Source of the DNA: Escherichia coli
GTDB taxonomy: Bacteria > Pseudomonadota > Gammaproteobacteria > Enterobacterales > Enterobacteriaceae
Direction: 5' to 3' (one strand)
DNA: 64,000 bases
Assembly (NCBI RefSeq): GCF_003991155.1
Contig: NZ_CP031297.1
In this document: positions 33,001-39,000 of the stretch, piece by piece
Layout of the letters: each line of letters opens with the position of its first letter
How positions within the stretch are numbered: the stretch's first letter is position 1
Made by a program: the position numbers

Positions 33001-36000
33001 GTAAAACTCGGAACCTTAAAGCTCGGCTTTGGCCGTGACCTTTCAATAACCCATGCGGGTACACTTCCCCGCACGGGGTAGGTGTACCCATTAACTTTGG
33101 AGTACACCTTATGAACCAAGTAGCTAAATTGGACCTCGCCCAAATCCGTCAACAAGCCATCAATGATGGTCTGCTGGTGGACCAATCTTCCATCGGTAAA
33201 CAAGCTGGTTTCCTGACCAATGTGGCAGTGACCCCGGCAATTGTCGATGGAGTATTTGGTGCAGATGGTAAGCACTCGGTAGAAGACTTCCTTTTCATGT
33301 TTTTGCAGCTTTGTGTTGCTCAAACAAAGGTCGCTTTTACCGACAACAAGAATTGGGGAAAGATTCGTCTTTATTACCCCATGCCCACTGTAGATGGCTT
33401 TTTCAAACCCACTGAGGTTGTGATTAAGTCAGATCCTGTAACCGCAGATGTCACAATCATGATGGCCTCGGAAGAGGGCGCTCATTTGTGCTTGTGATAT
33501 TCACAAAATTCGCCTCCGTTTCGGGGGCGACCTTTTTAAACCCCTCGCCGGGGAGAACTCCCCGGCTGGGGAGCCTCCTTGGCACATTCTCCCGGTGTCG
33601 GGGTTTCCTTAAAACCCTGGCGACGGGGGTTTAAGGAAGCCTCGATGCTGGGGTTCACGCTAAGGAGAAAACCTATGTCTTACTACAAAGCTGACACCGT
33701 TCGTGAAGCTGCAAACGGAAACTGGCTATTCATCCTGGCGGCCCTAGCGCCCCATCTTGAACCAGCTCTCCGTAAACCTGGTCGTCATGTTTCTTGTCCT
33801 ATCCACGGCGGGAAAGATGGCTTCCGACTGTTCAAGGATGCCCACCTGACTGGTGGCGGCGTATGCAATACATGCGGTGCCAATCATGATGGTTTTGAGC
33901 TGCTGATGTGGCTCAATAACTGGGACTTTAAACAGTGCCTGAGCGAGGTTGGTGATTATCTGGGCGTTGAGAAAGAGCAACCCCAGTATCAACAAGCCGC
34001 TGCACCGACACGAGCTCCTGTCCAGGCCAAAGCGCCTGTTCAGCAAGAGCCTATGAAGGTGAATAACAAGGTTCTCGATTCCAAGAATCGTAAAAAATCC
34101 ATTGCCGGTACTCTGATTGCCCACGGTAAAGCTCCTTATGAGCATAACGAAGACAACGAGCTCAGCTACTTTGCCTTCATCCGTGACAAGAGCGGTTTGG
34201 AACGCACCATCTGGGGCGTGGATCTTGAAAGAGCCATTGGTGAAAGTGAAGCCAAGTATGGGGATGAGATCGTCATGACAAACCTCGGGCGCGAGCCTGT
34301 AACTGTCGTCGTTGAAGTTAAGGACGAGCAGGGGAATGTTGTGAGAGAACAACCTATGCAAACGCATCGCAACACCTGGCTGGTGGAACGTCGCGGCGCT
34401 ACGGTAACGCAGTTCCGCGCTCGCTCGAACGGTGGTGTTGAGCCGGTGAGTCACCATGTTGAGTCGGCCCCTGTGGTCAACCGCAAGGTAGAAACTCCGG
34501 CACCGCAAGTACAACCTGCGGCCACACAACCGGAAGAGCAAAGCAGCGAAAATAAGCCGAAAGTTGTTCCGATGTTTCGTGAACAACCTAAGCCTTGGTT
34601 GCTTGAGCTCCAAGAAGAAATGGAGAAGAGAATGGAGCGCGAACGCGCTTACAGTGCTCGTCTCCGTGAGAAAATCGAGAAGGTATGGAACGAGTGTTTG
34701 CCGTTCTCCAGTCATGTGACTGAGCCAATGCGTCTGTACTTCAAAAACCGCGAGCTGCTGTTCAAAGTTGATGAAGTAGAAAAAACAGACTGTCTGCGGT
34801 TCAATCCGGCTATGGCCTACTACGACGAAGATGGCAATGAAGTTGGGAAATTCCCGGCTATCGTCTGCGCTATCCGAGATGTGGAAGGCAACCTGGTAAC
34901 GCTCCACCGCACCTATCTCACCCAAAACGGTAAAAAAGCCAAGGTCGGCAACGCCAAAAAGATGATGCCCATTCCTGACGGTTTGGATGTCAATGGCGCG
35001 GCCATCCGCCTCGGTGAACCGACTGAGGGTATCCTGGGTGTTGCAGAAGGGCTGGAAACAGCTCTGTCAGCTTATCGAGTCACTCAAATCCCGGTTTGGT
35101 CAACGGTCAATGCCACCCTAATGGAGTCCTTCGAGGTTCCAGAAGGTGTTCACACCGTACTGATCTGGGCTGACAAAGATAAGTCTGTGACTGGGGAGAA
35201 GTCAGCGAACGTGCTGAAAGCCAAGCTGGAGAAGCGCGGCATTCGTGTGTACGTCCTGCTGCCTAAGCTCCCGATCCCGCCCAGAGCGAAAGGGATTGAC
35301 TGGAACGATGTCCTGATGAGTCAGGGAAGCCTCGGTTTCCCGAATGCTCGCTACCTGCGCGATTTCATTGCGAGAAGGAGAGCTGAGTATGGCCGTCATT
35401 GATGTCTCGAAGGTTGATACAACGCCTGGTAACGACGCGGTGTGCCCCTTCTCTCCCCCTGAGGGGTGGGAGGGGGACTCTGCGGCCTACGTTGAGCTTA
35501 TGCGGTCTCGGTATCGTCATCTGATGCACGGCCAGAGAATGATGGTGACAGCCTCCTTCGCAAGAAGGGAGCCTATCCAAGTTACTGGCCCGTTTGCTGA
35601 TGAAGCGACGAAGATCATTAACTCAATGAAGATGAACAAGGCGAAGCCAACAGCTTTGTCTGCCTAAAACTTTAACCCTGAGGGGGTGTTCATGCCCTCT
35701 CAGGCATGATTCGCCTCCTCTTCAACTATGGAGGTAATCATGAAAAAGTTTTTGCGTATTAAGACGTGGTTTGTGCGTCTTTTCTCTCCTGACAAGAAGA
35801 CTCTGGGAGCTATCGGTGAAGACCTGCGTAAGGTCGCCGTAACAGCCATCGGTGTCGGTATTGTAGGGGTCGTCTCAGAAAACGGAATCTATGGTCACTC
35901 CCGTTTTTGCAACACCGATTTTGACGACAAGTTGGCTTGCTTGAATCTATCCGGCGTCTGAATGGGATTTTATTCCCGCGCCTCGATGAGTTCCGCGCCT

Positions 36001-39000
36001 GATGAACCTCCAGAAAATATACGGCTTCAATGAGCCTTTCCGTTTTACAGGTTCCTCAACAGGCCGGTGGGCCGTTAGTATCATCAATATCAGTATTCGC
36101 AAAACCAGATGAATGATTGTTTAAACTGGTGTATTTCTGCCTTTATGCTTCGTAAGTTTGCTGTCGCGCCGTCAGTGCCCAGGCTATTCTGGCCAGCTTG
36201 TTTGCCAGAGCACAGGTGACGACAAAGTTGCTTTTCCGACACAACAACTCCCTGACCCAGTCGGCCAACTTGCCAGACTGGTGTTCCAGTTTTTGTATGA
36301 ATACCCTGGCACACTGAACCAACAAAGTTCGGATCTTTTTGTTGCCCCGCTTGCTAATCCCTAACAATGTCGTCCGACCTCCCGTGCTGTACTGTCGGGG
36401 TACCAGCCCTGTTGCCGCCGCAAAGTCACGGCTGCTGGCGTACTGCTTCCCGTCGCCAATCTCAGTTGAAATAGTACTGGCAGTCAGCGTTCCAACGCAG
36501 GGAATACTCAGCAAGCGCTGTCCAACCTCATCTTCGTCCAACTTTCGTTTCAACTGAGATTCCAGATCTTTAATCTGCTCAACAAGATAGTGATAATGCT
36601 GTTGTAATTTCAGCAGTAACTGGCTGAGATAAAGAGGCAAACTACTGTCCTCAAGAAGGGTACTCAGTCGACTAATAACGGCAGCACCTCGCGGAACGCT
36701 GATACCAAATTCCAGCAGAAAAGCATGCATCTGATTAGTTGTTTTCACCTTATCCTGAACCAGGGATTCACGGACACGATGCAGAGCTCGCATTGCCTGC
36801 TGAGATTCGGTTCTGGGCTGCACGAAACGCATAGATGGACGTGATGCTGCTTCACAGATAGCTTCAGCATCAACGAAGTCATTTTTGTTGCTTTTAACGA
36901 ATGGGCGGACAAATTGCGGTGATATCAGCTTTGGAAAATGCCCTAACTCTTCCAGCTTGCGTGCCATAAAGTGAGAACCGCCACAGGCTTCCATCGCGAT
37001 GGTTGTTGCCGGGCATGTCGCCAGAAATTCGATTAGCTTTGGTCGGGTGAATTTTTTACGGTAAACGGCCTTCCCACGATGATCCTGACAATGAATATGG
37101 AAAGAGTTCTTACCCAGATCGATACCAATAAGCGCAATGTTTTCCATGATGGTTCTCCGAATGAAAGCCTGTCCTCAGCATAGTACTGGGAAGGAGGGAG
37201 TGACCATCTCATTAAATAAAGCACGCTAAGCCGGTGGCAGCGGTCGCAATGGCCTAAACTTCCCCGCACCGACCTTGGCGCTGCTGCGCCATAGGTAATC
37301 GCCGGTCAGGTTGATGTGCTCCCACCCCAGCGGCGACAGATATTGCAACAATGTGTCGTCCAGCGCCGTGCCGTTGCCACGCAAAGCACTGGTGGCACGC
37401 TCCAGATATACCGTGTTCCACAACACGATGGCCGCCGTCACCAGATTGAGGCCGCTGGCCCGGTAGCGCTGCTGCTCAAAACTGCGGTCGCGGATTTCAC
37501 CCAATCGGTAGAAGAAGACCGCCCTGGCCAGCGCGTTGCGCGCCTCGCCCTTATTCAGCCCCGCATGGACGCGGCGGCGCAGCTCCACGCTTTGCAGCCA
37601 ATCCAAAATGAACAGCGTGCGCTCGATGCGCCCCAGCTCGCGCAACGCCACGGCCAAGCCGTTCTGGCGCGGGTAGCTGCCGAGTTTGCGCAGCATCAGC
37701 GAAGCCGTTACCGTGCCTTGCTTGATGGAGGTGGCCAGCCGCAGAATTTCATCCCAATGGGCGCGTATTTGCTTGATGTTCAGCCTGTCGCTGCTAATCA
37801 TCGGCTTGAGCGCGTCATAGGCGGCATCGCCCTTGGGGATGAATAGCTTGGTTTCGCCCAAGTCACGGATACGCGGCGCGAAGCGAAATCCCAGCAAATG
37901 CATCAAGCCAAACACGTGATCGGTGAAGCCTGCCGTGTCGGTGTAGTGTTCCTCGATGCGCAAGTCCGACTCGTGGTACAGCAGGCCATCAAGCACGTAA
38001 GTTGAATCACGAATGCCCACGTTGACCACCTTGGCACTGAAGGGCGCGTACTGGTCGGAGATATGGGTGTAGAAAGTCCGTCCTGGACTGCTTCCATACT
38101 TCGGGTTGATATGACCAGTGCTTTCTGCTTTGCTGCCGGTTCTGAAGTTCTGGCCGTCCGACGATGACGTGGTGCCGTCACCCCAGTTGCCGGCGAAGGG
38201 TTGCCGAAACTGCGCATTCACCAGCTCGGCCAGCGCCGTCGAATAGGTTTCATCGCGGATGTGCCAGGCTTGCAGCCAAGACAGCTTGGCGTAGGTGGTG
38301 CCAGGGCAGGACTCGGCCATTTTGGTCAGACCCAGGTTGATCGCGTCGGCCAGGATCGTCGTCAACAGCAAGGTTTTGTCCTTGGCCGTGTCGCTGGTCT
38401 TCAGGTGTGTGAAGTGGCGGGTGAAGCCCGTCCATTCATCGACCTCCATCAGCAACTCGGTGATTTTGAGGTGCGGCAGCAGCATAGCTGTCTGGTCGAT
38501 CATGGCTTGCGCGGCGTCTGGTACTGCCGCGTCCAGCGGCGTGATCTTCAGGCCTGACGCGGTGGTGATGATGGCATCCGGTAAGTCGTTGGCCGCAGCC
38601 ATGCGGTTGACTGTGGCGAGTTGCGCCTCCAACAATTCCAACCGGTCATGCAGGTATTGGTCGCAGTCGGTGGCCACTGCCAGCGGCAATTCGCTGGCCA
38701 GCTTCAAAGTGGCGAACTTCTCGACCGGCACCAGGTATTCGTCGAAGTCCTTGAACTGGCGAGAACCCTGCACCCAGACATCACCGGAGCGCAGCGCGTT
38801 CTTCAGCTCCGACAGGGCGCATAACTCGTAGTAACGCCGGTCGATGCCGTCGTCGGTCAGAACCAGCTTTGCCCAGCGCGGCTTGATGAATGCGGTTGGC
38901 GCATCGGCGGGCACCTTGCGCGCGCTGTCGCTGTTCATGCCGCGCAGCATGTCGATGGCATCGAGCACACCCTTGGCGGCGGGCGCAGCCCGCAATTTGA

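Follow-up and report, generated by a model that had tools for sequence, protein, structure and literature searches.

We identify the segment 35740-37230 of the window (a 64,000-nucleotide stretch of Escherichia coli DNA from contig NZ_CP031297.1) as being, very probably, the left boundary of the ARI-A resistance island in an IncC (A/C2) conjugative plasmid. We hold with equal confidence the joint reading of this boundary, in which a Tn1696-type transposon would have inserted with duplication of TTGTA, IS5075 would have entered the IR, the island would have become fixed and the IS itself would be guided by RNA. The boundary structure is an ordinary one that has been published before, and the current understanding is unchanged by it; the one thing added, a guide RNA assigned to IS5075/IS4321 in concrete and testable form, is small. 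Table 1 lists the features on which the analysis is based.

Table 1. Features at and next to the left boundary of the island (positions in the 64,000-nt window)
Feature	Position	Strand	Basis
Truncated backbone gene, 5' 126 nt (42 of 79 codons)	35740..35865	+	Alignment with empty sites
Chimeric ORF, 42 backbone codons and 31 from IR/IS right end	35740..35961	+	WP_000714163.1
TTGTA, left copy of the island's 5-bp target-site duplication	35861..35865	.	Empty sites, relatives, PMC7652850
Outer 22 bp of 38-bp terminal IR (tnp end), Tn1696-type transposon	35866..35887	+	Direct reading, pattern search
IS5075 (IS1111 group, IS110 family), 1327 bp	35888..37214	-	100% identity to annotated copies
IS5075 right extension AGA, 3 bp	35888-35890	IS strand	
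IS5075 3' non-coding region (NCR), 255 nt, putative source of guide (seekRNA/bridge) RNA	35888..36142	-	
IS5075 subterminal IRs, 12 bp	37196-37207 and 35891-35902	IS strand	
Predicted target-binding loop; stem GAACCU/AGGUUC, inner hairpin GGCU/AGCC, internal loop	36004..36054	-	
Loop segment UAUUUUC	36013-36019	-	IR match, opposite strand
Loop segment AAAACGGAAA	36037-36046	-	IR match across insertion point
IS5075 transposase gene, 334 aa, DEDD/RuvC-like N-terminal and Transposase_20 C-terminal domain, GLVPRQYSTG	36143..37147	-	
IS5075 left extension TAATGAG, 7 bp	37208-37214	IS strand	
Inner 16 bp of 38-bp IR; overlaps last 5 bases of tnpA ORF including stop codon	37215..37230	+	
tnpA, Tn3-family transposase, 990 aa	37226..40198	-	ORF, Pfam
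tnpR, serine resolvase, 185 aa from ATG in RefSeq annotation of identical copies	40201..40758	-	
IRi of class 1 integron	40853..40877	+	Definition PMC6339943

The anatomy of the boundary and the empty site could both be read directly. The initial annotation had proposed that a backbone gene is disrupted here and had called for a comparison with island-free relatives. This comparison bore out the proposal, since the gene is intact in the island-free IncC plasmid p59174-171.4 and in the IncA plasmid pE51_002, with a start equivalent to 35740, and its reconstructed form contains a single TTGTA at the site. The intact gene spans 240 bp (79 codons) and encodes a small protein annotated as 'permease' (WP_000714162.1). 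In the alignment the empty sites read GGTATTGTA followed directly by GGATTGGCTG and the window reads GGTATTGTA followed by GGGGTCGTCTC, which places the insertion after codon 42 of 79, within the first hydrophobic stretch of the protein. A search of the 64-kb window for the distal half of the gene found it absent. The backbone flank matches 822 plasmids, and those inspected were typed IncC or IncA.

The far end of the island was likewise searched for and lies outside the 64,000-nt window; it was directly observed in relatives. TTGTA next to the IR had been put forward as a candidate target duplication, a proposal that was to fall if the far end lacked a matching IR and repeat. Both are present in pC1394 and pJ53_SAL-19-0623_NDM, which read ...CTTAGCGTGCTTTATT-IS4321-TTCCGTTTTCTGAGACGACCCC-TTGTA-GGATTGGCTG, with a 1327-bp IS4321 dividing the IR 16/22 and TTGTA leading into the distal gene half. 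The empty sites have one TTGTA and these two plasmids have one at either edge of the island, so that the duplication holds in the closest relatives. Both hallmarks of ARI-A are distributed in the same way: for an IncC backbone with the fixed site and TTGTA, the left copy is in the window and the right copy in relatives, and for IS-interrupted outermost IRs, the left IR is in the window and the right IR in relatives. The junction of pC1394 is 100% identical to that of the window over the 3 kb spanning it. In the closest complete relative, pJ53_SAL-19-0623_NDM, the island measures 49,129 bp and window positions 34983-50745 (15.8 kb) are matched with 100% identity. The left junction was found in 382 and the right junction in 380 of the 822 plasmid records with the backbone flank. 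The transconjugant plasmid of pSAL-19-0623_NDM is collinear with the window except for about 1.4 kb; no fully collinear record was found, and the far-end IR and TTGTA are seen in very close relatives only. No E. coli genome covering at least 80% of 39500-64000 was found, and the best PLSDB matches cover 88% of 44000-64000. The internal cargo of the island here is two class 1 integrons, ISCR1 and a blaNDM-1 region.

As first described, the ORF at 35740-35961 runs straight into the IR, and it continues through the IR into the IS. We regard it as a by-product of the insertion and not as a gene in its own right. That it is a genuine, selected gene encoding a functional fusion protein is scarcely credible, even though it consists of 73 uninterrupted codons with the original start and ribosome-binding context and is annotated in RefSeq as a hypothetical protein. 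Its last 31 codons come from the IR and the non-coding end of the IS, the empty sites encode a different product of 79 aa, the backbone protein is interrupted inside its first hydrophobic stretch, and a Pfam scan placed neither the intact nor the chimeric form in any family. It is also very improbable that recombination, homologous or mediated by IS26, put the island here or exchanged it, such that TTGTA beside the IR would not be a target duplication in this molecule. Islands of the ARI-A kind are heavily remodelled, some having lost one end via IS26 events (PMC7652850); the parent plasmid pSAL-19-0623_NDM matches the window, at an offset of +64,000, only up to about 46500, beyond which its island content differs; and in the source molecule itself the far end lies past base 64000. 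However, a TTGTA that is single in the empty sites and flanks the island in relatives, gene halves that adjoin the IRs exactly, and the presence of each junction in about 380 records all argue for transposition, and the making of the boundary is unaffected by later recombination within the island.

The interruption of the IR by the IS was confirmed base for base: the IR begins at 35866 and is split 22/16 by a 1327-bp element of the IS110 family. The 22-mer GGGGTCGTCTCAGAAAACGGAA and the 16-mer AATAAAGCACGCTAAG each occur only once by pattern search, with chance expectations of 0.01 per shuffled window and 0.03, respectively. Excision of the IS in silico yields a 98-bp sequence of IR and tnpA end that is contiguous and 100% identical in many plasmids, so that the 22 and 16 bp, once joined, make up an authentic IR in which nothing is duplicated or missing. 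None of the individual loci compared contained an uninterrupted IR; the intact form was found in the plasmid collection. The bases themselves fix the IS boundary only to within 1 bp, giving a split of 22/16 or 21/17. By published convention the position of the IS in the IR is given as 22/16.

The element had been named IS4321/IS5075. Its place inside the transposon IR and the name IS5075 stand, with 100% identity to annotated IS5075, and the name IS4321 does not, identity to the IS4321 copy of pC1394 being 93.5%. More than 3,700 plasmid records match the element at 99% or above. IS1111 transposases are 330-350 aa long and carry the C-terminal motif GL-P----S(T)G (PMC11187229). The IS5075 transposase is recognised by Pfam (PF01548, E = 1.4e-20; PF02371, E = 4.5e-20) as expected for IS1111, and the motif is found in its translation as GLVPRQYSTG. 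The 12-bp subterminal repeats (ATGGTCACTCCC) fall within the 7-17 bp of the IS1111 group and are accompanied by 7-bp and 3-bp extensions; the non-coding sequence is likewise of IS1111 form, with 255 nt 3' and 67 nt 5' of tnp. Insertion at a fixed position in an IR without target duplication, together with near-identity, identifies the element as IS5075, a hunter of Tn21-subgroup IRs (PMC6339943). Three independent IR insertions share one position and one orientation, and in the relatives the IR at the far end is occupied by IS4321 at the corresponding position.

On the island side of the IS, the 38-bp IR, the tnpA gene whose end lies within it, the DDE transposase of the Tn3 family and the serine resolvase are those of the Tn21 subgroup. 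Tn1696 is defined by a class 1 integron in res, next to tnpR (PMC6339943). Here, an integron does lie next to tnpR, its IRi 35-95 bp upstream of the gene (94 bp from the tnpR ATG at 40758), and its location in res is judged from this upstream position. The mer module, the second IR and the 5-bp duplication are found in pC1394 and pJ53_SAL-19-0623_NDM, not within the window. Assignment of the module to the Tn1696 type is supported by its architecture and by the literature statement for ARI-A (PMC7652850). The nesting of three layers noted in the initial annotation is sustained, with the IncC backbone outermost, then the Tn1696-type module (IR, tnpA, tnpR and integron IRi) and IS5075 within the IR.

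How IS5075 finds the IR is most likely through a guide RNA from its 3' NCR, as its sequence suggests. Experiments on four IS1111 members have shown the NCR-derived RNA to be both essential and reprogrammable, and in IS1111 members the segment pairing with the top strand is reported to lie 5' of the other (PMC11187229); bridge RNAs are predicted for 93% of IS1111 elements (PMC11208160). Guide-like matches to the IR are directly visible in the NCR of IS5075. AAAACGGAAA and UAUUUUC match opposite IR strands, and both matches extend across the insertion point and have TTTC in common. The segment that would pair with the top strand is again 5' of the other, and the fold places them on opposite sides of an internal loop. 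The predicted target-binding loop is invariant between IS5075 and IS4321, and the NCR as a whole is nearly so, whereas the two tnp genes show 7.7% base differences, most of them synonymous. We consider it likely that the guide RNA of IS5075/IS4321 is the stem-loop at 36004-36054, in which AAAACGGAAA and UAUUUUC would serve as the two guides to the Tn21-family IR. Guide and target may thereby be explicitly matched for the first time in IS5075/IS4321, which appear in the guide-RNA literature compared as a target logo or a citation only; no RNA experiment on either was found there. A comparison of the NCR with the IS circle junction for donor-binding segments returned only 6-mers (ATAGAT and CTCATT), in about the number expected by chance.

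That the IR is recognised purely through protein-DNA contacts or DNA structure, the NCR matches being coincidental, is a rather unlikely alternative. Each match can be reached by chance when taken singly (15 of 2000 shuffles for the 10-nt match and 86 of 2000 for the 7-nt match), the fold of the candidate RNA is not significantly more stable than that of shuffles (z = -0.18), no Rfam family was found for it (35600-37500, E <= 1), and the literature compared held no RNA experiment specific to IS5075. Yet both matches together arose in none of 2000 shuffles, and their order, overlap and internal-loop placement are those of the published IS1111 seekRNA pattern. The stronger conservation of the NCR than of the coding sequence also speaks for RNA guidance, as do the essential, reprogrammable RNAs of four IS1111 members and the bridge RNAs predicted in 93% of IS1111 elements.

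From this anatomy we infer an order of events, together with a 'locking' effect and the guidance of IS5075 by RNA. A Tn1696-type transposon (Tn21 subgroup, Tn3 family) would have entered the 79-codon backbone gene by replicative transposition, duplicating the 5-bp target TTGTA and splitting the gene after codon 42. IS5075 would then have moved to its preferred position within the 38-bp terminal IR, with its transposase gene facing outward. It was most likely led there by a guide RNA (seekRNA/bridge RNA) transcribed from the 255-nt 3' NCR, in which AAAACGGAAA and UAUUUUC would pair with the two IR strands across the crossover point. With both IRs split, they would be unusable by the Tn3-family transposase and the island would be fixed at its site. 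After fixation it would have evolved in place through gain and loss of integron cassettes, ISCR1, IS26 and blaNDM-1 modules. Such 'locking' by IS-split IRs is the interpretation given in the literature, where ARI-A is described as Tn1696-derived, with the TTGTA duplication and with IS4321/IS5075 in the outermost IRs (PMC7652850).

The junction is a reliable marker of ARI-A-bearing (type 1) IncC plasmids, vehicles by which blaNDM-1 and numerous further resistance genes spread through Enterobacterales, Vibrio and Aeromonas, and the IS-split IRs would account for an island that keeps to a single site and diversifies there. IS5075 and IS4321 are clinically ubiquitous, and the guide assignment, if true, would predict which variants of the IR are open to being 'hunted' and which are not.

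Compared with the seekRNA and bridge RNA systems of ISEc11, ISKpn4, ISPa11 and IS621, the putative IS5075 RNA shares the overlap at the crossover, the segment order and the internal loop; it differs from them in being deduced from sequence and in having donor-binding segments that do not rise above chance. The IS itself shows the features of IS5075/IS4321 (Partridge and Hall 2003, as cited in later papers): it is 1327 bp long, encodes a DEDD transposase of 334 aa, has 12-bp subterminal IRs flanked by extensions of 7 and 3 bp and a long NCR on the 3' side, and sits, with no duplication of the target, at the one position and in the one orientation used within 38-bp IRs of Tn21-family transposons; from annotated IS5075 copies it shows no difference. 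With Tn1696 the window shares the succession IR, tnpA, tnpR and then, in the res region immediately upstream of tnpR, a class 1 integron, and the relatives of the window share the mer module, the second IR and the 5-bp target duplication. The island departs from Tn1696 in that its integron content differs from In4, its length is about 49 kb with many added modules, and both IRs are IS-interrupted (the right one in relatives), which makes the structure the relic of a transposon and no longer an active Tn1696. Finally, ARI-A of type 1 IncC plasmids (reference pRMH760; Harmer and Hall, by way of PMC7652850) is alike in the backbone site and the TTGTA beside the IR, and likewise has a Tn1696-type tnp module at this end and an outermost IR cut by IS4321/IS5075; 380-odd sequenced plasmids are 100% identical at the left junction. 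The boundary shows no difference from that of ARI-A, and the internal cargo alone varies.

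The left flank of the island (33000-35865) finds matches in 822 plasmids, mostly at 99% identity or higher, and the plasmids inspected among them are typed as IncC or IncA. In two island-free relatives, p59174-171.4 (IncC) and pE51_002 (IncA), a 240-bp gene (79 aa, WP_000714162.1) whose start corresponds to 35740 of the window is intact. The empty site in both reads GGTATTGTA followed directly by GGATTGGCTG, whereas in the window GGTATTGTA is followed by GGGGTCGTCTC, which places island entry after codon 42. The ORF at 35740-35961 is thus a chimera of 42 backbone codons and 31 codons running through the terminal inverted repeat (IR) and the IS end; Pfam returned no family for its product or for the intact 79-aa product. 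The proposal that a backbone gene is disrupted at the island boundary is borne out by this comparison.

Each half of the split IR occurs once in the 64-kb window, with 0.01 (GGGGTCGTCTCAGAAAACGGAA) and 0.03 (AATAAAGCACGCTAAG) occurrences expected in shuffles. The initial annotation had the IR interrupted by a 1327-bp IS110-family element. Both halves were read where it placed them, and the 1327 bp between them are 100% identical to annotated copies of IS5075, an element present at no less than 99% identity in more than 3,700 plasmid records; its ORF carries both Pfam domains typical of IS110-family transposases. When the IS was removed in silico and the two halves were joined to the next 60 bp, the resulting 98-bp sequence was found contiguously and at 100% identity in many plasmids, showing that IS5075 sits in an authentic 38-bp IR, without duplication or deletion. 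On sequence alone the split can be read as 22/16 or as 21/17, since the IS boundary may shift by one position. The single ambiguous base at this boundary (35888 / 37214) is a T that the left end of the IS shares with the target; recombinase-type exchange would leave just such a common core base at the crossover.

Features at the left island boundary (window coordinates)
Feature	Position	Strand	Remarks
Outer IR part, GGGGTCGTCTCAGAAAACGGAA	35866-35887		direct reading of 35500-37500
Inner IR part, AATAAAGCACGCTAAG	37215-37230		direct reading of 35500-37500
IS5075 transposase ORF	36143-37147	minus	334 aa; inside the 1327 bp separating the IR halves
IS5075 hallmarks			12-bp subterminal IRs; 7-bp and 3-bp terminal extensions; GL-P----TG motif
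Guide-like segment TATTTTC	36013-36019		in IS5075 non-coding region
Guide-like segment AAAACGGAAA	36037-36046		in IS5075 non-coding region
tnpA			990 aa, Tn3 DDE domain; inside IR
tnpR			resolvase; after tnpA
IRi of class 1 integron	40853		94 bp from tnpR ATG

IS5075 has every hallmark of the IS1111 group, and its non-coding region (NCR) measures 255 nt downstream of tnp versus 67 nt upstream. For 93% of IS1111 elements a bridge RNA has been predicted, located in the right end (PMC11208160). The two guide-like segments match opposite IR strands, each across the insertion point, overlap on TTTC, and stand in the published IS1111 order (PMC11187229). None of 2000 shuffles reached both matches (AAAACGGAAA alone 15/2000, TATTTTC alone 86/2000). 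Both MFE and centroid folds place them on two sides of one internal loop, with closing stem GAACCU/AGGUUC and cap hairpin GGCU/AGCC. The fold energy of the candidate RNA is unremarkable (z = -0.18), an Rfam search of the IS5075 region gave no matching family, and donor-side matches in the NCR were at chance level only. We infer, on good grounds, that an RNA probably guides IS5075 to the IR.

Compared with IS4321 of pC1394 (45850-47176 of that locus), IS5075 of the window (35888-37214) shows 77 differences in tnp (7.7% of bases), nearly all synonymous, so that 329 of 334 transposase residues are identical and five differ. NCR positions 33-255 hold one mismatch, indicating tighter constraint on the NCR than on synonymous sites. 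Such near-invariance beside synonymous change in tnp fits a functional RNA.

A third IS5075 copy, also in pC1394 (37523-38849), adjoins chrA and lies inside a variant IR (GGGATCGCCTCAGAAAACGGAA and AATAAAGCACGCTAAG on its two sides), in the same position and orientation relative to the IR as elsewhere; the guide-matched target core is unchanged and the outer IR bases differ. In Providencia rettgeri Pp138-NDM (NZ_MZ670000.1, locus positions 3260-4400) the same TTGTA site is followed by only 9 bp of IR, GGGGTCGTC, then by GG and CTTAGCGTGCTTTATT. Next stands an IS5075 in opposite orientation that breaks off some 30 nt into its 3' NCR, where it is joined to the 3' end of tnpA. This junction looks like a local inversion with deletion, which may be genuine or may stem from the assembly.

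The 64-kb window does not contain the distal half of the split backbone gene, and the far end was read in relatives. In pC1394, which matches the window at 100% identity for 3 kb spanning the left junction, the island ends in CTTAGCGTGCTTTATT, IS4321, TTCCGTTTTCTGAGACGACCCC, TTGTA and GGATTGGCTG, followed by the remainder of the backbone gene. The closest complete relative, pJ53_SAL-19-0623_NDM (100% identity to 34983-50745, 99.8% to 49373-64000), has the same far end, its 1327-bp IS4321 splitting the IR 16/22, and an IR-to-IR island length of 49,129 bp. Both the matching IR and the TTGTA repeat are thus found at the far end in these two plasmids, so that the absence first named as refuting the proposal does not occur in them. 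Among plasmid records the left junction occurs 382 times and the right 380 times.

The rest of the island within the window (40800-64000) holds two class 1 integrons in tandem, the first with intI1 and blaOXA-4-aadA2-strAB and the second with intI1 and aadB-qacEdelta1-sul1, followed by an ISCR1/ISAba24/groESL/blaNDM-1-ble region. This NDM region is contiguous, as in the window, in pJ53_SAL-19-0623_NDM (E. coli J53 transconjugant, IncC only, 192 kb), and lies about 90 kb from the left junction in the parent pSAL-19-0623_NDM (Salmonella London, IncC and IncFIB cointegrate, 276.7 kb). Window positions 49373-50745 (about 1.37 kb), in the sul1/ISCR1-type part, align on either side of a single breakpoint in pJ53_SAL-19-0623_NDM, indicating that the window has one repeat copy more than this plasmid.

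A 5-bp duplication calls for a transposon with two working IRs, and guides spanning both sides of the crossover would need an intact IR for IS insertion. In relatives IS5075 occupies one end of the island and IS4321 the other, suggesting that each inserted in an event of its own. The proposed nesting would accordingly have arisen in the order backbone, transposon, IS, in agreement with the three layers first suggested.

Tn1696 is organised as IRL-tnpA-tnpR-res-mer-IRR with a class 1 integron in res (PMC6339943). The IR-tnpA-tnpR-integron order of the window is alike, the likeness being one of gene arrangement, and in relatives of the window the mer module lies at the far end of the island. The ARI-A island of IncC plasmids, with pRMH760 as reference, is described as a mosaic of Tn1696 origin flanked by a 5-bp TTGTA duplication, its two outermost IRs interrupted by IS4321 or IS5075; this interruption "locks" the island, whose evolution then proceeds in situ (PMC7652850). 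By this account the boundary at 35740-37230, where the initial observation is confirmed and its interpretation supported, is that already known structure.
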